This document shows, one piece after another, positions 9,215-40,301 of a stretch of 64,000 nucleotides of DNA. The position numbers and the translations under genes were made by a program. The DNA comes from a virus (taxonomy: Duplodnaviria > Heunggongvirae > Uroviricota > Caudoviricetes). How positions within the stretch are numbered: position 1 is the first letter of the stretch; each line of letters opens with the position of its first letter. The DNA is taken from the IMG/VR virus record IMGVR_UViG_3300031088_000735. The stretch is one strand, 5' to 3'. Under the pieces are notes generated by a model. It did no database searches. It worked only from the letters and a program-made list of their open reading frames with translations, and was not told where the DNA came from.

Positions 9215-9330
9215 TCATCGTTAATTTCTTGTTTCATTAAGTGGTATAAATAAAGTTTATTTATACCATCTCTTCACAAGCTTTCACTGTTGAACTAACA
9301 GCATAATCGTATAGATTCTTCGATGCATTT
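9187..9330 (-). ncRNA. putative TnpB omega-RNA scaffold
   Basis: overlaps tnpB 3' end (AVSSTVKAC) to the right end; perfect 12-bp inverted repeat GGTATAAATAAA-G-TTTATTTATACC at 9243-9267; 5' limit is approximate. Confidence 0.55.
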
Positions 9331-10409
9331 TCATCTCTATCATGGTGAGTATTACAACTTGGACATGTCCAAGCTCTAACACTTAATCCTATTGTAGCAA
9401 ACTTATAATGACATTTTGAACATAGTTTTGTTGATGGATAAAATTTATCAGCCTTTACTATGTTTGATTCATATAACTTAGCTTTATATTGTAGTTGTCT
9501 TGAGAATTCATAAAGCCCTGCATCAAGAATAGACTTTGATAAATGTCTATTCTTGGACATAGCTTTTATATCAAGTGTTTCAATACCAATGATAGAGTAA
9601 TTATTCGTTAAAAAGTGAGTAAGTTTATGCAAATAATCTTTCCGAATATTAGCAATTCGAGAATGTAACTTAGCCAAAATAATTCTTGCTTTATAACGAT
9701 TTTTAGAACCTTTTTGTTTTCGAGACAGTTGTCTCGAAAGAACTTTGATTCTGTTTTGCAATATTCGATAAGGCTTAAGCGTTGGAGCATTCCAATGCTT
9801 AGAACCATCAAAAAAAGTTGCAAATGATTTAATGCCAAGATCTATACCAATAGCGTGATTTTTGCTATGAACAATGGATTCTTGTTCTACTTCGATAGAA
9901 AGAGAAACGAACCATTTACCTGCAGTTCTAGATAGAACAGCAGTTTTGATAGAACCATTAAAACGTAATGACTCTTTCATTTTAATAGGTTTTAACTTAG
10001 GTATTATCAAATAACGACCTTCTATTTTCAATTGGTCGTTACCAATTTCAAATGAATCATGGTGATATTTATTTTTGAATTTAGGGAATTGAGCACGTTT
10101 GGCAAAGAAATTGACAAACGCAGCACCTAAGTTTTTTATGGCTTGTTGTGGTGCGTATTTAGATACGTCATACATCCAAGGAAATTGTTGTTTTTTAATG
10201 GAATTAAGACGTTTTCGTAGTTCACCTTCGTAACGTGATGAAGAAGGTGAGACAGAACAAGCAAAAGGATATTTTTGATAAGCCTCATAATCATCTTTCC
10301 ATTGAGATAAAGCCCAATTATAAGCAAATCGTGCTGTACCAGCAGATTGGCTTAAATAAGTAAGTTGAGACTTACTGGGCTTTAATTCAATTTTATGAGA
10401 TTTGAGCAT
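9261..10409 (-). CDS. tnpB: RNA-guided endonuclease TnpB
   Basis: N-terminal HTH (GTARFAYNWAL), RuvC motifs IGIDLG / IGIETL / DRDENAS, zinc ribbon CSKC...CPSC. Confidence 0.95.
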   Translation of the reverse strand: MLKSHKIELKPSKSQLTYLSQSAGTARFAYNWALSQWKDDYEAYQKYPFACSVSPSSSRYEGELRKRLNSIKKQQFPWMYDVSKYAPQQAIKNLGAAFVNFFAKRAQFPKFKNKYHHDSFEIGNDQLKIEGRYLIIPKLKPIKMKESLRFNGSIKTAVLSRTAGKWFVSLSIEVEQESIVHSKNHAIGIDLGIKSFATFFDGSKHWNAPTLKPYRILQNRIKVLSRQLSRKQKGSKNRYKARIILAKLHSRIANIRKDYLHKLTHFLTNNYSIIGIETLDIKAMSKNRHLSKSILDAGLYEFSRQLQYKAKLYESNIVKADKFYPSTKLCSKCHYKFATIGLSVRAWTCPSCNTHHDRDENASKNLYDYAVSSTVKACEEMV

Positions 10410-22958: not shown

Positions 22959-23033
22959 CGCCGAAAACACCTTCAATTAAAAGGCCGTTTCGACGGTCTT
23001 TTTTTATTAAAGATTCAATTGTTGAGAAAAAGT

Positions 23034-23306
23034 ATGACCAAAAAGTACATTTTGCTTTGTAATAATGAGCTGTTTACTTTTGACAATGGTAAAAATATGG
23101 CTGATATCAACGCATGGCGGCGTGTCCTATGTGTTTGGAATGATCAGCTTGAATGCTTTTATCTGGATAAGGCTGGCGATGATATTGAACACGTCGATGA
23201 CCTTATGCGGCTTATGTTGAAAGGCCCGGTTGACGTTTACACTCAGTCGATGGTAAATAGCGGAGACAGTCCAGTTAGCTTTTTCTTGAAAGAACTTGTT
23301 GAATAA
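23034..23306 (+). CDS. hypothetical protein
   Basis: ORF; start at TTG 23019 or ATG 23034. Confidence 0.65.
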   Translation: MTKKYILLCNNELFTFDNGKNMADINAWRRVLCVWNDQLECFYLDKAGDDIEHVDDLMRLMLKGPVDVYTQSMVNSGDSPVSFFLKELVE

Positions 23307-23376
23307 GGATTGTTTTGTATTTTGTTTTTTTGTATAATGCCCCATCAAAAATAAACGCTTACATTTAGGAATAATC

Positions 23377-23556
23377 ATGGCTGGCTATATTCATGATGAC
23401 ATCAAAGAAATTATGGAAGACGCTGCAGATTCTGTTCATCCGACATTGCCTTCGACTAAAGGATGGACAGAAGAACAGTTGAAGTCTTTGGATGTGATGA
23501 TGCAATTCGCATGGAATCGTGGTTACAAATCGGCTTCGCAAGATTTAAATGAATAA
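23377..23556 (+). CDS. hypothetical protein (59 aa, not in ORF track)
   Basis: AGGA SD, CCCATC promoter; MAGYIHDDIKEIMEDAADS... Confidence 0.65.
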   Translation: MAGYIHDDIKEIMEDAADSVHPTLPSTKGWTEEQLKSLDVMMQFAWNRGYKSASQDLNE

Positions 23557-23608
23557 AAGTTGTTGACACGTTAGCCGAAACCTTGATATAATTTAGCTAC
23601 ACACAAAC

Positions 23609-23693
23609 GCCCATGTGGTGAAATTGGTAGACGCGGCGGATTCAAAATCCGCTTCCGAAAGGAGTATCGGTTCGAGTCCGATCTTGGGCACCA
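23609..23693 (+). tRNA. trnL: tRNA-Leu(CAA)
   Basis: cloverleaf, anticodon loop TTCAAAA, long variable arm, GGTTCGAGTCC, encoded CCA. Confidence 0.95.
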
Positions 23694-23707
23694 AATTTAA
23701 GATTTAT

Positions 23708-23875
23708 GGCTGTTGTCAAACTGGATCGGTTTAAGGTGTCGAATGTGCAGACATTAAGAATCGTGGATGTGGAGGCAGAGCGAAGATGAAAACAGTAATT
23801 CAGACGAGATTGCACATACTCTGAGGCTTACTCAATAGTCCTAGCTTGGTGGTTCGATCCCATTAACAGCTACCA
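23708..23875 (+). ncRNA. tRNA-like RNA with ~130-nt internal domain
   Basis: acceptor GGCTGTT/AACAGCT + A + CCA, T arm GGTGG-TTCGATC-CCATT, D-loop-like AAACTGG; followed by terminator. Confidence 0.65.
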
Positions 23876-23976
23876 AACACAAACCACCTTTACGGGTGGT
23901 TTTTTTATTTTTAGGCTTTTATAATTCCTTTTATTTTGATATACTCTGGTTGTTGATTCTTTATTTGAGGTTTTTA

Positions 23977-24171
23977 ATGAAAACACGTATCCGCGAAGTT
24001 GAACGTTACGGTGGTAAAAAAGCCTATATTTGTGAATACAAATGGCTGTTCTGGTGGCGTCCATGCAATACCACTTTGACTCATTTTCCAATGGGTTCAT
24101 GCCGCAGTGGATATTCAAAAAAGGAATATGCCGAAGAACGTATTAAAGCGTTTCTGGCGGGTGAACCTTAA
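23977..24171 (+). CDS. hypothetical protein
   Basis: GAGGT SD before ATG 23977. Confidence 0.65.
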   Translation: MKTRIREVERYGGKKAYICEYKWLFWWRPCNTTLTHFPMGSCRSGYSKKEYAEERIKAFLAGEP

Positions 24172-24233
24172 TTTCCCTTTGTTCTTTTTCCTTGTGTATG
24201 GTATAATACTCTCAATCTAATTGGGGGTATTGT

Positions 24234-24842
24234 ATGCAGCTCATCGAACACTTCTCTACCAGCTATGGCCCTCGCACTAAGCACCACGCTCAGACTGCAG
24301 ATCTTACGGTGGCTTTTGCCGAAGACTTCAACTCAGCCGGTGAACGTCTAACCAAACGCGAAGCAGGCAAACGCTATGTTGCCATTCATTTGAGCACTGA
24401 CCCGCTTGTGGCTGCTCGTATGCTCTATGCTGCTTGCAAAAAACACAACGTGTCAACATTGAACGTCGCAGGTAATGGTATCTACTCGCTTTCTGGTGCG
24501 TGGTCGAATGGTCAATTGAATGCACAGCACAAATTTCAATCGTTGGATGATGAGAAATTGGTTAACGAGCTGCAGGCTTCTTTGAACCAGTGGATTTATC
24601 TTGTCATTTCCAAAGTCCATGAATTCTGGCCTCTTACCCATCTTATTTCAGGTGGTCAAACAGGTGTGGATTGGGCCGGTGGTATCGCTGGTGAGCTTCT
24701 GGGCTTAGATGTGAAGATGACATTCCCTAAGCACTATATGCAGCGTGACGAGCACCATAATGACTTTACTCAAAGCCATGAAGCAGTTCAGCAAAAAGTC
24801 AGTGCTTACTTGAACTACGTTGATACCACTCAAAAAATCTAG
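24234..24842 (+). CDS. SLOG-superfamily (YpsA/MoCo-carrier-like) nucleotide-processing protein
   Basis: LNVAGNG and ISGGQTGVD motifs, RT..A..AD.T motif. Confidence 0.65.
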   Translation: MQLIEHFSTSYGPRTKHHAQTADLTVAFAEDFNSAGERLTKREAGKRYVAIHLSTDPLVAARMLYAACKKHNVSTLNVAGNGIYSLSGAWSNGQLNAQHKFQSLDDEKLVNELQASLNQWIYLVISKVHEFWPLTHLISGGQTGVDWAGGIAGELLGLDVKMTFPKHYMQRDEHHNDFTQSHEAVQQKVSAYLNYVDTTQKI

Positions 24843-24916
24843 CCTAAAAAACTAGATTTTGTTTACATTGATTTGGGTTTTGATGTATAATGACTGAAAT
24901 CAAACGAGGCTATACC

Positions 24917-25498
24917 ATGACTGCTCTTGAACAAATGCACGCTCAACTCAAAGCCATCCGCGAACAACGTGGTCAACTCTTTGAGCAAATCCGACCGCTT
25001 CAGGAACAAGCGGCTGTTCTCTCGAAAAGCATTACAGATCTTAATGACGCTATCACCGTAGAAACCCTGAAAACTGAGCAAACTGAACAAGACCGCTTTG
25101 ATTTTCTGATGGCCGAATCTGGTTCTGGCTCGGACATGAAGCGTTATAATGCTGCTGATACCATCATTCGTGATATGGGTTTATACATGACGGGTTGGTG
25201 CGAGTTCAGCCAACAGCGTTCAGCACAAGTCTTTATCTACAAGTTGGATGAAGGACGTAACGATAAGACGATTGTTTCTATCAAAAAGCTTATCGAACTC
25301 TTTAAGCCAATGGATGAAGAAGGTAACAAGACCTTTAAAGTCTTCTGTCAAGATTACACAATTTTCGCTCATGCTGACGGCACGTTTTCTTTGCGTAAAT
25401 CCCGCTTCAAGAACGATTTTGCTACACTGGAAGAGTTGTTTGCTTACTACGTTGCAAACTGCCCTTGCGATGACGATGAAGAAGGCAATGACGACTGA
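24917..25498 (+). CDS. hypothetical protein, N-terminal coiled coil
   Basis: GAGG SD before ATG 24917. Confidence 0.75.
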   Translation: MTALEQMHAQLKAIREQRGQLFEQIRPLQEQAAVLSKSITDLNDAITVETLKTEQTEQDRFDFLMAESGSGSDMKRYNAADTIIRDMGLYMTGWCEFSQQRSAQVFIYKLDEGRNDKTIVSIKKLIELFKPMDEEGNKTFKVFCQDYTIFAHADGTFSLRKSRFKNDFATLEELFAYYVANCPCDDDEEGNDD

Positions 25499-25676
25499 GC
25501 GGTTGATGTTAAGAAGGGGGCCAATCGGCCCTTTTTTTATTTCTGCTTAAATATCAATAGTATACAGTGATTTATTTTGATGTTTTCAGTAAAAAAGATG
25601 AAAATAATGCTTTACACCGATGTTCTTTTTCCCTATAATGAACCCATCAAAACGAAACAACACAAGGAAATACGAA

Positions 25677-25808
25677 ATGCAAGGTTCTCACCGCGACATG
25701 ATGGAAAAGTTTGCAGGTAAGCAGAAAGACAACTCCAAACGTAGCGAAAACAAAGCTAGCCGTCAAAACCGTGATCAACGTCGCAATCGTCACCCGGACG
25801 CAGAATAA
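25677..25808 (+). CDS. small basic MQGS-family peptide, copy 2 (43 aa)
   Basis: MQGSHRDMMEKFAGKQKDNSKRSENKASRQNRDQRRNRHPDAE; AAGGA SD; 9 nt before tRNA-Arg. Confidence 0.85.
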   Translation: MQGSHRDMMEKFAGKQKDNSKRSENKASRQNRDQRRNRHPDAE

Positions 25809-25817
25809 CCCAAACAT

Positions 25818-25894
25818 CCGTGCGTAGCTCAGTTGGATAGAGCATCCGCCTTCTAAGCGGATGGTCGCAGGTTCGAATCCTGCCGCATGGGCCA
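25818..25894 (+). tRNA. trnR: tRNA-Arg(TCT)
   Basis: cloverleaf, anticodon loop CTTCTAA, GGTTCGAATCC, CCA. Confidence 0.95.
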
Positions 25895-25933
25895 AATTTC
25901 TACTCTTGTTTTAAAAATCAACGACAGGACATA

Positions 25934-26431
25934 GTGATGAAAACCACTGAATTTCCAAAAAACTTTGAAATTTTCTTGGAGACTGTTTCCTCGGTAGCTC
26001 AGATCTATAAAGGTGAGAACTTCGCCTCGATGGAATATGCCAAACGCTATGATTTGAAAGCCGCCAATAAAAAACCAAAAGAAAATGCTAAACGTCCAGT
26101 CAAAAATAACGCTATTCATCCGATTGATGATCTGTTTGTGGGCGTTCAGTGGGAGACTGGTGGTGTGCGTGGTGGTTCTTGGCATCAAGATGCTAAACCA
26201 GAACGTTTTATATCTAATGAACAACCAGTTTCTATCACTCCACTGATTTGTAAAGTGCTGATTGCTGTTGGTCGAGAAAACTTGTCGTTTGTTCAGTATT
26301 CAGCTTATATCGAAACACTGTTTCGCAAGGGTTCTTCTACTAATTCTGGAGATTGCTACGGCAACTCTGTCGATTACAATTATGTTGCAGTGAATTTGAA
26401 AGAACTTTACGATGCTTTGGCTGATTTTTAA
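25934..26431 (+). CDS. hypothetical protein
   Basis: AGGA SD; 165 aa ORF. Confidence 0.75.
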   Translation: MMKTTEFPKNFEIFLETVSSVAQIYKGENFASMEYAKRYDLKAANKKPKENAKRPVKNNAIHPIDDLFVGVQWETGGVRGGSWHQDAKPERFISNEQPVSITPLICKVLIAVGRENLSFVQYSAYIETLFRKGSSTNSGDCYGNSVDYNYVAVNLKELYDALADF

Positions 26432-26521
26432 TTAAATTAGTCTTATCATTGCCCTAAAAAATCTTGTGTGTAGGATGTTATGTTGATATAATGTCCCCAT
26501 TGAAAGGAAGCAAAATTTTAA

Positions 26522-26606
26522 GCCCGAGTGGTGAAATTGGTAGACGCGGGGGACTTAAAATCCCCTTCCTTACGGAGTGCCGGTTCGAGTCCGGCCTCGG
26601 GCACCA
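26522..26606 (+). tRNA. trnL: tRNA-Leu(TAA) copy 1
   Basis: cloverleaf, loop CTTAAAA, CCA; own promoter at ~26462-26492. Confidence 0.95.
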
Positions 26607-26645
26607 GATTACAAAACCCTATTCACCATTTGTTATTTAATGAAT

Positions 26646-26677
26646 GTGCCAGAGGTGAGCCAATAATGCAGCACTAA
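26646..26677 (+). other. minigene 1 (SD + ATG CAG CAC TAA, MQH)
   Basis: GTGCCA-GAGGTGA-7 nt-ATG at 26666. Confidence 0.7.
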
Positions 26678-26746
26678 GACTTAATTAATTCTATAATTGA
26701 ATCTAGTATAATGAATCCGAAATGACTTTAATTCTAATTAGATGAA

Positions 26747-26778
26747 GTGCCAGAGGTGAGCTACCCATGCCGCATTAA
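26747..26778 (+). other. minigene 2 (SD + ATG CCG CAT TAA, MPH)
   Basis: GTGCCA-GAGGTGA-7 nt-ATG at 26767. Confidence 0.7.
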
Positions 26779-26823
26779 ATTTAAATCAAATCTAGATATT
26801 AATCAATTGACAAAAATGTTGTA

Positions 26824-26850
26824 AAAACCCCATTAATGTGGGGTTTTTTG
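26824..26850 (+). terminator. intrinsic terminator closing tRNA-Leu/minigene unit 1
   Basis: AAAAACCCCATTAATGTGGGGTTTTTT. Confidence 0.85.
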
Positions 26851-26912
26851 TTGCACAGAATTTATTATTTATGTATAATGTATTTTTATTACTTTCATTA
26901 CAAGGAAATTGT

Positions 26913-27119
26913 ATGCACGAAGAAATAATTAAAACATTTTATCGTAAACGTCCTGATGGTAGCATAGGTTTTGCAGAAATCAGCAGCTACAATTATCCAG
27001 ATCGAGATCGCTTTGATCAGGCGTGCTATTTCTTCCAAGCAGAAGGCTATTTTGATACGCTCGAAGAAGCCAAAGATGCGGACTATGTTCCACCGCTAGC
27101 CTACGAAAGAACGGAATAA
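26913..27119 (+). CDS. hypothetical protein
   Basis: AAGGA SD before ATG 26913. Confidence 0.7.
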   Translation: MHEEIIKTFYRKRPDGSIGFAEISSYNYPDRDRFDQACYFFQAEGYFDTLEEAKDADYVPPLAYERTE

Positions 27120-27221
27120 TCTTTTAAATTTTAAACAAAACCGTCTTTATGGCGGTTTTTTGTTGTCATACTTTTTGTTTTTTGCTATAATCATTTCATT
27201 AAAGACATTTATAGGTTCAAC

Positions 27222-27698
27222 ATGATTTCTATCGAAACCTACTCGAAACCAGCCGAAAATCCAGAAATCGTAAAACTGGTCTATTACTCCATGCGTAATA
27301 AATACACGGCAGACTCCGATCCAGCCGGTTTGACGTTTAAAGAAGTCCGTTCTATCTTGAAAGGGCTTTCTGTTATGGCTATCAAGCATGAAGGCCGCAT
27401 TGTGGGCATTGTCCGCATGTCTGATGTGGGGTTCCCAATGAATATGCGTTTGGGTCTTAACAATGCCTTTTCCTATGAAAACCTTGGCATGATTTACATT
27501 GCCAAAAAAGAACGTGGTAATGGCTTTGCCAGTGCAGCAGTTGAATACTTGCTCACTCAGCATAAAAATCTCATTTATGTGGTTCATCAAAGTAATGTCG
27601 CCAGCAATAAATTGGCAGAAAAATACTTCACTTTTTTCAAAAGGCAATCGTCTTTTCGCTCGTTTGAAGCCTACAATATTTACAAAATCGAGCAATAA
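27222..27698 (+). CDS. GNAT-family acetyltransferase
   Basis: LGMIYIAKKERGNGFASAAV; N.AS..LAEK. Confidence 0.8.
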   Translation: MISIETYSKPAENPEIVKLVYYSMRNKYTADSDPAGLTFKEVRSILKGLSVMAIKHEGRIVGIVRMSDVGFPMNMRLGLNNAFSYENLGMIYIAKKERGNGFASAAVEYLLTQHKNLIYVVHQSNVASNKLAEKYFTFFKRQSSFRSFEAYNIYKIEQ

Positions 27699-27768
27699 GT
27701 TGTTGACGTAAAAAGACTTTCTTGTTATACTTCTCCCATCAAAACGAAACAACAAAAGGATACAAAAC

Positions 27769-27897
27769 ATGCAAGGCTCTTACCGCGACACGATGGAAAA
27801 GTTCCCTAGCAAATCTAAGGACACTGTAAAACGTGGCGAAAACAAAGCTTCCCGCAACATGCGTGACCAACGTCGCAATCGTCACTCGGACGAATAA
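27769..27897 (+). CDS. small basic MQGS-family peptide, copy 3 (42 aa, not in ORF track)
   Basis: MQGSYRDTMEKFPSKSKDTVKRGENKASRNMRDQRRNRHSDE; AAGGA SD; 9 nt before tRNA-Leu. Confidence 0.85.
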   Translation: MQGSYRDTMEKFPSKSKDTVKRGENKASRNMRDQRRNRHSDE

Positions 27898-27906
27898 GTC
27901 AACTAC

Positions 27907-27991
27907 GCCCGGTTGGTGAAATTGGTAGACGCGGGGGACTTAAAATCCCCTTCCTTACGGAGTGCCGGTTCGAGTCCGGCACCGGGCACCA
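27907..27991 (+). tRNA. trnL: tRNA-Leu(TAA) copy 2
   Basis: cloverleaf; matches copy 1 apart from compensatory acceptor-stem changes. Confidence 0.95.
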
Positions 27992-28031
27992 AATTAAACA
28001 AATAACATTAACGACTTGCTAATTAATGAGT

Positions 28032-28063
28032 GTGCCAGAGGTGAGCCAATAATGCAGCACTAA
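28032..28063 (+). other. minigene 3 (SD + ATG CAG CAC TAA, MQH)
   Basis: same sequence as minigene 1; ATG at 28052. Confidence 0.7.
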
Positions 28064-28138
28064 GACTTAATTAATCCTATAATTGAATCTAGTATATAGT
28101 TTATGAATACCGATTAATGTGAAATACTCTTATAATAA

Positions 28139-28170
28139 GTGCCCGAGGTGAACTACCGATGCAGCTATAA
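28139..28170 (+). other. minigene 4 (SD + ATG CAG CTA TAA, MQL)
   Basis: GTGCCC-GAGGTGA-7 nt-ATG at 28159. Confidence 0.7.
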
Positions 28171-28205
28171 TCTTAACCTAAATCATAGAATATAATTAAG
28201 ATGAT

Positions 28206-28233
28206 AAAAACCCCGTTGAAGCGGGGTTTTTTG
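28206..28233 (+). terminator. intrinsic terminator closing tRNA-Leu/minigene unit 2
   Basis: AAAAACCCCGTTGAAGCGGGGTTTTTT. Confidence 0.85.
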
Positions 28234-28303
28234 TTTTCATTGCAATAAAATTCTTGTTTTTATATTGAATTTTTGATAAAATATTCTTTATCAATTATCG
28301 ATA

Positions 28304-28573
28304 ATGGCGGCTAAAATGAACTATCCACACTTGCTTGACAAAGTTCAGGTTATTGACGAAAACAGTATTTATTATTTGGAAACTGGTCGCGTTAGTAACT
28401 CCGTTATGAACTATTATCGCATTGTTGCTCTTGATTGTGGTTGTGTTGCTAAATTTTTTCTATGTGACATTGCTTGTAATGGTTATGGTGATAAAGAAGG
28501 TCGTTACCCTTGTATGACTAGTCTACCGTTTAAAATTTGTTATAATCATAAACAAATTTCCACTTTTTCCTAA
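28304..28573 (+). CDS. hypothetical protein
   Basis: 89 aa ORF, weak SD. Confidence 0.55.
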   Translation: MAAKMNYPHLLDKVQVIDENSIYYLETGRVSNSVMNYYRIVALDCGCVAKFFLCDIACNGYGDKEGRYPCMTSLPFKICYNHKQISTFS

Positions 28574-28660
28574 CTATTTAAGAGCGTGTACGTTGCTTTT
28601 TTCTTTTTTGAAATGACTTTATTTTTGTCCTTATTTTTGCTATAATTAGGACATTAAATC

Positions 28661-29002
28661 ATGAGGTATATTATTATGAAATCTGAATTTTGGGTGGTTT
28701 TGATATTTTTAGCTTTTATTTTGATGTTTTATGCTCCATTCATTATTCATAATAAATTTAAAAATAAAAAATTGGAAGTGAGCAAAACGTATCAGATGAA
28801 TAAATTGAATAGCCTTCCAGACTTTTCAGGGGTATTCAAACATGGTTTGGTTGTTCGAGTTGAAACTGGGATTACATTCTTTCATAATCTGATTGAACCT
28901 TCTGGGGTATTGGTTAAATCCTTTGATCCTGATTGGGAGAAAGATGATATTGACTTCTTTGCTAATAAACATGGATATAGTTTGAAATATATTGATTTTT
29001 AG
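28661..29002 (+). CDS. membrane-anchored hypothetical protein
   Basis: N-terminal TM; promoter upstream. Confidence 0.7.
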   Translation: MRYIIMKSEFWVVLIFLAFILMFYAPFIIHNKFKNKKLEVSKTYQMNKLNSLPDFSGVFKHGLVVRVETGITFFHNLIEPSGVLVKSFDPDWEKDDIDFFANKHGYSLKYIDF

Positions 29003-39833: not shown

Positions 39834-40301
39834 ATGATCGCAAAACGTTATACTATTTTCAACAAGCACATCGGTGGTAGTAACCGCCTCCCACAAGGCT
39901 TTCATGGCCTAAATCGCTTGCATTCAACCAAGGCTAAAATGTCGCCAGAAGCCCAAGCTTTGTTTGCAGAGTGGGAAAAATCGGAAACCGAAGTGGTTCT
40001 GATGGGTGGTAATGACGAACAGCTTGAAGCCCTTGCAGCCGCATTGGCTAACATCACTGAGCTGCCTTCGGCTAAGTTCAACGAAGCGGATCTGCGTGAT
40101 AGCTGCACTGTTGTGACGTTTGTCGCCACTGATCGCATTGTAGCAGGTGGCAATGAACTTCGTGGCATGAATGTGAAGCCTTATGAAGCCGAAGATTTCT
40201 TGGCTAAAAACACTGTCCGTATGCCGGAAGGCCGCGTTCAGTTGACGCCAGATGAAATCTTTGTTGTTGCCAACATTGCTTACCTTCGCCTTGCCGACTA
40301 A
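39834..40301 (+). CDS. peptidyl-tRNA hydrolase (Pth2)-like protein
   Basis: PQGFH, W...ETEVVLMGG..EQL..L, LP.AKFNEADL...CTVVTFV pattern recalled from phage Pth2-like proteins. Confidence 0.55.
   Translation: MIAKRYTIFNKHIGGSNRLPQGFHGLNRLHSTKAKMSPEAQALFAEWEKSETEVVLMGGNDEQLEALAAALANITELPSAKFNEADLRDSCTVVTFVATDRIVAGGNELRGMNVKPYEAEDFLAKNTVRMPEGRVQLTPDEIFVVANIAYLRLAD

Follow-up and report, generated by a model that had tools for sequence, protein, structure and literature searches.

What do three-codon open reading frames (ORFs), placed two at a time behind tRNA genes, do for a phage? The question arises from the IMG/VR virus record IMGVR_UViG_3300031088_000735, a 64,000-nucleotide (nt) stretch of Caudoviricetes DNA that we call the window. 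Two short units follow each of its two tRNA-Leu(UAA) genes, and every pair is then closed by a hairpin-plus-U-tract terminator. The original prediction, made from the sequence of the window, described each unit as GTGCC[A/C]-GAGGTGA-N7-ATG-two codons-TAA, where GAGGTGA is a Shine-Dalgarno (SD) sequence. Re-reading positions 26300-28500 gave exactly these four units:

26646..26677, + strand: unit 1, MQH (GTGCCA at 26646, GAGGTGA at 26652-58, ATG at 26666, CAG CAC, TAA at 26675-77)
26747..26778, + strand: unit 2, MPH (GTGCCA-GAGGTGA-N7, ATG at 26767, CCG CAT, TAA at 26776-78)
28032..28063, + strand: unit 3, MQH, near-identical to unit 1 (ATG at 28052, CAG CAC, TAA at 28061-63; repeat families D3 and D4)
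28139..28170, + strand: unit 4, MQL (GTGCCC-GAGGTGA-N7, ATG at 28159, CAG CTA, TAA at 28168-70)

Units 1 and 3 share 98% identity across 58 nt. We propose that the units are ribosome-loading minigenes, built to engage ribosomes rather than to make protein, and we hold this explanation as a whole with slightly better than even confidence.

Three analyses indicate that the four units are not chance occurrences. The pattern GAGGTGA-N7-ATG is present four times in the window for 0.12 expected occurrences, a count reached in none of 100 shuffles. The 13-nt block GTGCCNGAGGTGA has four exact matches in the window, every one of them a unit. Lastly, a window-wide scan for any 4-nt SD core followed within 4-10 nt by an ATG, at most three codons and a stop yielded these four alone on the + strand.

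Pattern scans of IMG/VR and of the JGI metagenomes detected units in eight other contigs, with lengths from 110 kb to 1.5 Mb, and in a few short fragments. The family set composed of the window and these eight related metagenome contigs comprises 35 distinct units with 18 distinct mini-ORF sequences. The relatives include G001, a 290-kb record, G002 to G005, of 152, 179, 437 and 162 kb, respectively, and a 678-kb contig carrying locus L168. The latter locus is syntenic with the window: the succession of a tRNA-Leu(UAA), two units and a terminator occurs twice and precedes the same downstream gene.

The ATG is invariant in all 35 units and follows GAGGTGA or a close variant, with a spacer of 7 nt in 34 of them and 6 nt in one. 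Zero to four sense codons come next, most often CAG and at most one more, so that the ORFs have one to five codons (M, MQ, MP, ME, MK, MQH, MPH, MQL, MQF, MQS, MQN, MQI, MPY and MQHKL). The ATG-to-stop offset is 3 nt in three units, 6 nt in 11 and 9 nt in 19, and in these 33 units no stop triplet of any frame comes before the in-frame stop. Of the two exceptions, one has a single-base deletion, and its frame continues two codons to the next TAA. In the other, ATGAAGTAA, an out-of-frame TGA overlaps the ATG, and the in-frame TAA is found at 6 nt. By comparison, control ATGs located in the AT-rich flanks of the units begin ORFs whose median length is 7 codons, and 10/50 of these have no more than three. 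All three stop codons are used across the family, two units of the relatives ending in TAG. Thus, the invariance expected from the window extends to the whole family for the SD, the ATG and the spacing of ~7 nt, but not for a TAA after exactly two sense codons, as TGA and TAG occur and the ORF length varies.

The differences between orthologs also respect the reading frame. The second unit behind the tRNA changes by whole-codon steps, from MQL in the window (unit 4) to MQ in the syntenic L168 locus and MQF in G001, and the CAC codon of unit 3 is replaced by the synonymous CAT in L168. Copies in which the GTGCC box is degraded (GGCCCGAG-, GTGC-AG- or GTCTAG-) retain SD-N7-ATG-TAA, with N6 in one of them. 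This ATG-TAA start-stop form is represented by three distinct units, with copies in G001, G003, G004 and G005. We also looked for relatives that have kept GTGCC/GAGGTGA without the ATG or the stop, which the original prediction had named as the finding that would count against it. Every relative with that sequence retains both. The comparison of the 35 units, with their invariant SD and ATG, their spacing and their in-frame stop, thus upholds the view that the minigene anatomy is a selected feature and shows that the family evolves with preservation of the frame. Since the third residue varies freely and many units consist of only one or two codons, the peptide itself is not selected; as judged from these alignments, the selected product is the translation event.

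That ribosomes engage the units is, on sequence grounds, quite probable. Their predicted SD/anti-SD duplex amounts to -11.7 to -11.8 kcal/mol, compared with a median of -5.25 for 92 genes of the window, and it is stronger than those of 91 of the 92; these values assume a canonical 16S tail. In five relatives (1.2 Mb in total), GAGGTGA-N7-ATG occurs 20 times, always in a unit and on the tRNA strand, and never at a real gene.

The sequences collected outside the family behave differently and serve as a negative control. A first scan of viral contigs, in which the ATG was left unspecified, gave 123 matches, 118 of which are singletons without ATG at +7, and the five matches found in a related contig all have ATGCAG at this position. 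An 18-base pattern searched in 185,579 bacterial and archaeal species genomes returned 18 matches, in coding DNA of 46-72% GC and with frames of 12 to 964 codons; this search yielded neither a family member nor a clue to the host. As far as searched, the family appears to be confined to this phage clade. A five-copy repeat at L165 (PVBE012587664.1) that shares GCCCGAGGTGA..ATGCC was rejected as a member, having 17-codon frames in DNA of 55% GC; its core is (A)TGCCCGAGGTGAtccaatcATGCC, and its copies are spaced by ~61 and ~335 nt.

In the window, the units belong to two putative transcripts with the following elements:

26464..26492, + strand: promoter-like site predicted for the first tRNA-Leu(UAA) transcript (TTGTGT, 17 nt, TGnTATAAT extended -10), read by eye
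26522..26606, + strand: tRNA-Leu(UAA) copy 1 (ARAGORN; Rfam tRNA, 55.5 bits)
~26823..26849, + strand: intrinsic terminator of the transcript with tRNA-Leu copy 1 and two units (CCCCA/TGGGG stem, U-tract; repeat family D6)
27703..27731, + strand: promoter-like site of the second transcript (TTGACG, 17 nt, TATACT), found by consensus scan
27769..27897, + strand: gene for a 42-residue basic peptide upstream of tRNA-Leu copy 2, predicted to be co-transcribed with it (paralog at 25678-25808; repeat D2)
27907..27991, + strand: tRNA-Leu(UAA) copy 2 (ARAGORN; Rfam tRNA)
28206..28231, + strand: intrinsic terminator of the transcript with the peptide gene, tRNA-Leu copy 2 and two units (hairpin and U-tract; the D6 repeat copy spans 28205-28235)

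The first promoter-like site escaped the consensus scan because its -35 element agrees with the consensus at 3/6 positions only. With a promoter-like site upstream and no terminator before them, the units are presumably transcribed, and the stop of the last one lies ~45 nt ahead of the terminator stem. Some DNA sequencing runs, including phyllosphere samples, contain the stretch; six runs recorded or guessed as RNA share 6-14% of its words and are uninformative about expression or habitat.

The link with tRNA genes made in the original prediction is not a defining feature. Five loci without any tRNA (L124, L123, L140, L143 and L006) hold stand-alone arrays of 2-5 units, each preceded by a sigma-70-like promoter and followed by an intrinsic terminator. 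Those of G002 to G005 align as one conserved gene, with a common promoter, unit cores, a tail of ~100 nt and a terminator. A single unit is found in the 3' untranslated region (UTR) of a protein gene, right before the terminator (L144), and at L159 the units are upstream of a tRNA-Arg. Successive units are 98-118 nt apart. The co-orientation of the units with tRNAs, promoters and terminators is shown by the maps of these loci.

A few other features of these loci were recorded. The array tail (ACGGTGYGG, a U-run and AAGTGRCAATTTAACGYCCTCCACC) precedes the terminator at L123 3815-3905, L124 3520-3430 (- strand), L140 ~1790-1880 and L143 ~1690-1780; it holds an anti-SD-like CCUCC, and its GGUG...CACC could form a stem. 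At L159 (- strand), two paralogous micro-ORFs of 8 codons, MKEEFDDI and MKDEHDDL, each with its own SD, are found between the two units, upstream of a structured region and of the tRNA-Arg(UCU). A TATAAT- or TAGAAT-like box lies 30-45 nt past the stop of each unit (26700-26715 and 28086-28100 in the window, and likewise at L034, L168 and L124), often with TTGAAT or TTGATT a few bases upstream. This recurring box may provide each unit with its own promoter, or be a common AU-rich processing signal.

This diversity of contexts bears on an explanation in cis. Ribosomes parked on untranslated RNA might stabilize it, shield AU-rich RNase E sites or block Rho, with consequences for their own transcript only. 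SD-like stabilizers such as the cryIIIA STAB-SD are known to protect RNA through 30S subunit binding. In agreement with such a role, every unit occupies untranslated RNA, downstream of a promoter and upstream of an intrinsic terminator, and the units accompany several types of cargo, being in a tRNA trailer, upstream of a tRNA, in a 3' UTR or ahead of the conserved 3' tail. Their regular spacing and AU-rich flanks with recurring UUAGA/AUAGA motifs fit as well. Nevertheless, G001 encodes 37 tRNAs, most of them without a unit, so that the units are not a general device for tRNA processing or protection. The stand-alone arrays consist almost entirely of units, and a protector without cargo would be odd, unless the ~100-nt tail is the cargo. 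C-poor spacers would in any case make poor Rho-loading sites. A start codon and an in-frame stop within three codons would be dispensable for a stabilizer, but they are conserved. We regard parking in cis as unlikely.

In the minigene explanation that we favour, the very strong SD (GAGGUGA), 7 nt before the AUG (6 nt in one unit), would load a ribosome onto non-coding parts of a transcript. The ribosome would initiate there and terminate almost at once, after zero to four sense codons. With termination near-immediate, a unit would yield ribosome engagement and its by-products instead of a peptide. The latter would comprise a cycle of fMet-tRNA, one or two aminoacyl-tRNAs and release and recycling factors, and a dropped-off short peptidyl-tRNA. 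The likeliest effect would be in trans, as a sink or trap for the translation apparatus of the infected cell, of the lambda-bar/CreT kind, possibly biased to host tRNAs that read G-ending codons. We favour a trans-acting sink by analogy, because short minigenes and CreT RNAs cause tRNA starvation or sequestration (PMC2490762, PMC8501985). We propose this part tentatively, with rather less than even confidence. Transcription and translation of the units, like their effect in trans, are what we infer from their organization.

The codons of the units are the obvious place to look for the target of a trap. According to the original prediction, they might select the host tRNAs for Gln, Pro, His and Leu. 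The family does not single out these tRNAs by its last sense codon; the second codon is the only constrained one. When present, it is always NNG, mostly CAG and also CCG, GAG or AAG; no third codon has a final G. In the genes of the window, these second codons are minor among their synonyms (CAG 27%, CCG 12%, GAG 17% and AAG 23%). The tRNAs of the related contigs serve A/U-ending codons, with many Leu(UAA) and Arg(UCU), together with Pro(UGG), Lys(UUU), Thr(UGU) and Gly(UCC), and no tRNA with a C34 anticodon matching the minigene codons was found in those contigs. Other tRNA genes of the clade are unusual. G001 and G004 (L215, L216 and L245) have two or three tRNAs with a CUA anticodon (amber suppressors), as well as tRNA-like genes with 8-nt or odd anticodon loops, for which ARAGORN reports 'tttg', 'agaa' or 'ga'. 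Stop-codon recoding or frameshift-type decoding in the clade is a possibility suggested by these genes.

A candidate peptidyl-tRNA hydrolase is encoded ~12 kb from the units:

39834..40301, + strand: 155-residue protein with a predicted Pth2 (peptidyl-tRNA hydrolase 2) fold (AlphaFold2 model, predicted local distance difference test score 93.1)

In a Foldseek search with this model, the 13 best matches in the PDB were all Pth2-family proteins, including 1q7s, 2zv3, 1wn2, 3erj and 1xty, with a probability of 1.00 and template-modelling scores by target of 0.55-0.69. At the sequence level, the protein scores 12.2 bits against Pfam PTH2 (PF01981), whose cut-off is 23, and has no Pfam match above cut-off. 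It matches PHROG 3668, 'hydrolase', with E = 1.6e-12 and has ~33 metagenomic homologues; a homologue is encoded in G001. Searches of the five relatives for Pth1 (PF01195) and for the RF-1 domain (PF00472) were negative. The Pth2-fold protein is possibly a functional counterpart of the units.

One could go further and see a phage weapon in the natural minigene arrays, for a codon-biased shutoff of host translation. Transcribed at the level of tRNA genes, the units would drive idle ribosome cycles that shed fMet-Gln-tRNA, or its Pro, Glu or Lys equivalents. The tRNAs for G-ending codons, the least used by the AT-rich phage, would be tied up. The phage would supply tRNAs for A/U-ending codons, and some lineages would add the Pth2-type hydrolase as a release valve. 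The NNG codons, the phage tRNAs and the Pth2-fold gene are compatible with a codon-biased trap that the phage would relieve with its own hydrolase. As a complete scenario, this shutoff is very doubtful.

Several observations weigh against the minigene explanation and its trapping variant. The units are homologous copies, so that counts over the family are higher than the number of independent events. That transcription continues past the tRNA is deduced purely from the lack of an earlier terminator. Two genes of the window use GAGGTG, and their SD core is 2-3 nt closer to the AUG than that of the units. The SD of the units is not predicted to be especially exposed, with an unpaired probability of 0.48 against 0.55 over the whole unit. 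The absence of rare or repeated codons and the freedom of the last sense codon argue against the trapping of one specific tRNA. With ~3-10 units per genome, transcription would have to be very high for a stoichiometric sink. G004, a 98% complete genome that carries units, lacks the Pth2-like gene. Finally, GTGCC (~26-30/34), an R-C-Y after the SD (C in 33/34) and the G-ending second codon are about as conserved as the SD. These three features are not needed for translation, and translation alone leaves them unexplained.

The last point supports a different explanation, in which GTGCC-N-GAGGTGA-RCY and AUG-NNG together form a linear recognition site for a partner other than the ribosome, so that their likeness to a start site would reveal just one side of their function. 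The site might be bound by a nuclease or RNA-binding protein of the phage, or it might be a decoy for a ribosome-dependent host toxin, RelE-type toxins preferring CAG in the A site. It might also act as a mimic or an antisense of the tRNA-Leu acceptor end. Indeed, the phage tRNA-Leu genes carry GCCCGAG-GTGAA as their nt 1-7 and 10-14, and GUGCCCGAGG is perfectly complementary, over 10 nt, to the 3' end of tRNA-Leu copy 1 (U4 matches). However, ~60% of the units carry A for the third C (GTGCCAGAGG), a version that no tRNA found in these phages fits. We thus discarded pairing of the units with the tRNA-Leu 3' end. The resemblance to tRNA-Leu possibly reflects an origin of the unit from a 5' fragment of a tRNA-Leu gene and is not a demonstrated interaction. 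Furthermore, the degraded copies without GTGCC keep SD, ATG and stop, the 3/6/9-nt periodicity of the stops is hard to explain without decoding, and no candidate partner was identified. Such a recognition site is decidedly unlikely.

An origin from tRNA-Leu also raises the question of whether the units are functionless leftovers of tRNA-Leu gene duplication, since their 5' block resembles the 5' end of that gene. Neutral copies, however, would not retain the ATG, the spacing and the in-frame stop in 35 diverged copies over nine contigs. A structured RNA or hairpin repeat, with the flanks UUAAUG.../...CAUUAA closing a stem, would be the other explanation without translation, and single-sequence folds often pair the AU-rich flanks. 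Nevertheless, RNAalifold on 24 units gave an empty consensus structure. Cognate flanks around the core are no more complementary than non-cognate ones (medians of -1.4 and -1.6 kcal/mol, respectively; p = 0.20), and hence no cognate-specific pairing was detected. Leftovers and structured RNA are, taken together, highly improbable. A search of positions 23000-29000 with Rfam 15, at E values up to 10, matched only tRNAs, and nothing overlapped the unit cores; weak matches to rimP, Leu_leader, STnc180 and istR over the terminator region were below gathering scores and were dismissed. An attenuator leader peptide was likewise rejected: neither alternative hairpins nor a gene ahead of the terminator are present, and ~45 nt separate the stop from the terminator stem.

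The 290-kb G001, classified as a 'provirus' in IMG/VR, is a piece of the 1,539,155-bp metagenome contig Ga0247725_1000001 (L170, L178 and L189), while L168 and L187 are on the 677,834-bp contig Ga0308157_10000028. Either source contig may be a very large phage genome, a concatemer, a chimeric assembly or cellular DNA. In the GenBank phage collection, searched with megablast and blastn, the tRNA alone was matched and no cultured relative was found; a tblastn search of the same collection with a 409-residue protein of the window gave no match. Among the papers covered by our literature search, none joins minigenes with jumbo, huge or mega phages.

Several neighbouring features of the window can be mentioned. 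The basic peptide encoded upstream of tRNA-Leu copy 2 and its paralog, of 42-43 residues (MQGS...RRNRH; 25678-25808 and 27769-27897, + strand), end 9 nt before tRNA-Arg(UCU) and tRNA-Leu(UAA), respectively, in the order of their coordinates. They recall the small basic Tpr ORF of the Escherichia coli tyrT operon. Behind a tRNA-Leu(CAA), positions 23708-23875 (+ strand) encode a tRNA-like RNA of ~168 nt with an acceptor stem (GGCTGTT/AACAGCT), a T-arm and CCA. Its internal domain of ~130 nt contains GGAGG and, 10 nt further, the ATG of a 12-codon frame; neither a tRNA nor a transfer-messenger RNA is predicted there by ARAGORN. Lastly, a TnpB/IS605 OrfB-type gene (OrfB_IS605, Cas12f1-like TNB and HTH domains) is found at 9261-10409 (- strand), within the phage region.

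Among known systems, the lambda bar minigene is close in structure. All 35 units have the architecture of bar and of the engineered minigenes of 2-8 codons, namely an SD, a suitable spacing, an AUG, few sense codons at most and a stop, and bar is also phage-borne. The lambda sites barI and barII are single and look incidental; they are toxic only in Pth-defective hosts, harm the phage and contain the rare codon AUA. In contrast, the units described here form a conserved multi-copy family with 2-5 members per transcript and a conserved 5' block of 17 nt. They are found behind sigma-70-like promoters, in tRNA operons or in dedicated promoter-to-terminator arrays, and they have no rare codon, the most frequent being CAG where bar uses AUA. 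Short minigenes are known to cause peptidyl-tRNA drop-off and tRNA starvation, more strongly when they are shorter, an effect that either Pth or the cognate tRNA can relieve (PMC2490762).

CreT RNAs are natural toxins that sequester tRNAs by means of a mini-ORF and require strong initiation signals (PMC8501985), and a CreT with proline codons was reported in Pseudomonas aeruginosa (bioRxiv 10.64898/2026.06.02.729485). Like the phage units, they are active by being translated and combine an efficient start, a mini-ORF of a few codons and a stop; the strong initiation signal of CreT has its equivalent in the units. CreT ties up a tRNA through two consecutive identical minor codons, whereas none of the 18 distinct ORFs of the family has a repeated codon, and their third codon is free. 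The stable stem-loop downstream of the CreT mini-ORF has no counterpart other than the transcript terminator after the last unit. Because these two features are lacking, we do not classify the units as CreT. CreT is in addition a single cellular unit repressed by Cascade-CreA, while the phage units are in tandem with one constrained codon. As for a creA partner or a Cascade-repressed promoter, no CRISPR-like repeat was found in the 6 kb around the units, although no dedicated search was made.

Start-stop sites occupied by ribosomes were seen in E. coli by retapamulin ribosome profiling (bioRxiv 10.1101/520783). The three distinct SD-N7-ATG-TAA units of the relatives (N6 in G004) have the same structure. 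They differ from the E. coli sites, which are single and scattered, in being members of a repeat family at the heads of arrays. The units of the window, with two sense codons each, are not start-stop sites. Neither are the units stabilizers of the STAB-SD type, which have an SD-like sequence near the 5' end that acts without a start codon; the units are in trailers or arrays and always have an ATG and a stop. In the E. coli tyrT operon, the rtT RNA (Rfam RF00391) is made of 178-bp repeats holding a 33-codon ORF and not minigenes. It resembles the present loci in that repeated non-tRNA units are transcribed behind tRNA genes before the operon terminator. Nevertheless, the units gave no Rfam match at E values up to 10, and the two have no similarity in sequence or architecture.

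If the units act in trans, they would represent a new phage route to manipulate host ribosomes and tRNA pools, beside the phage tRNAs, suppressor tRNAs and Pth2-like enzyme of the same genomes; an action in cis would instead make them a new kind of RNA-protecting module. In both cases, the mutational predictions for this defined 32-nt element are clear. For thirty years, minigenes were mostly a laboratory curiosity, in the form of lambda bar and synthetic constructs, to which the single-unit CreT toxins have lately been added. What is new here is a set of conserved, multi-copy, phage-borne minigene modules in a clade of huge phages. The clade has retained them long enough for their spacers to diverge, whereas the start, its spacing and the presence of an in-frame stop within three codons have survived codon-sized insertions and deletions. 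This is comparative evidence that very short translation events are themselves selected in a virus.

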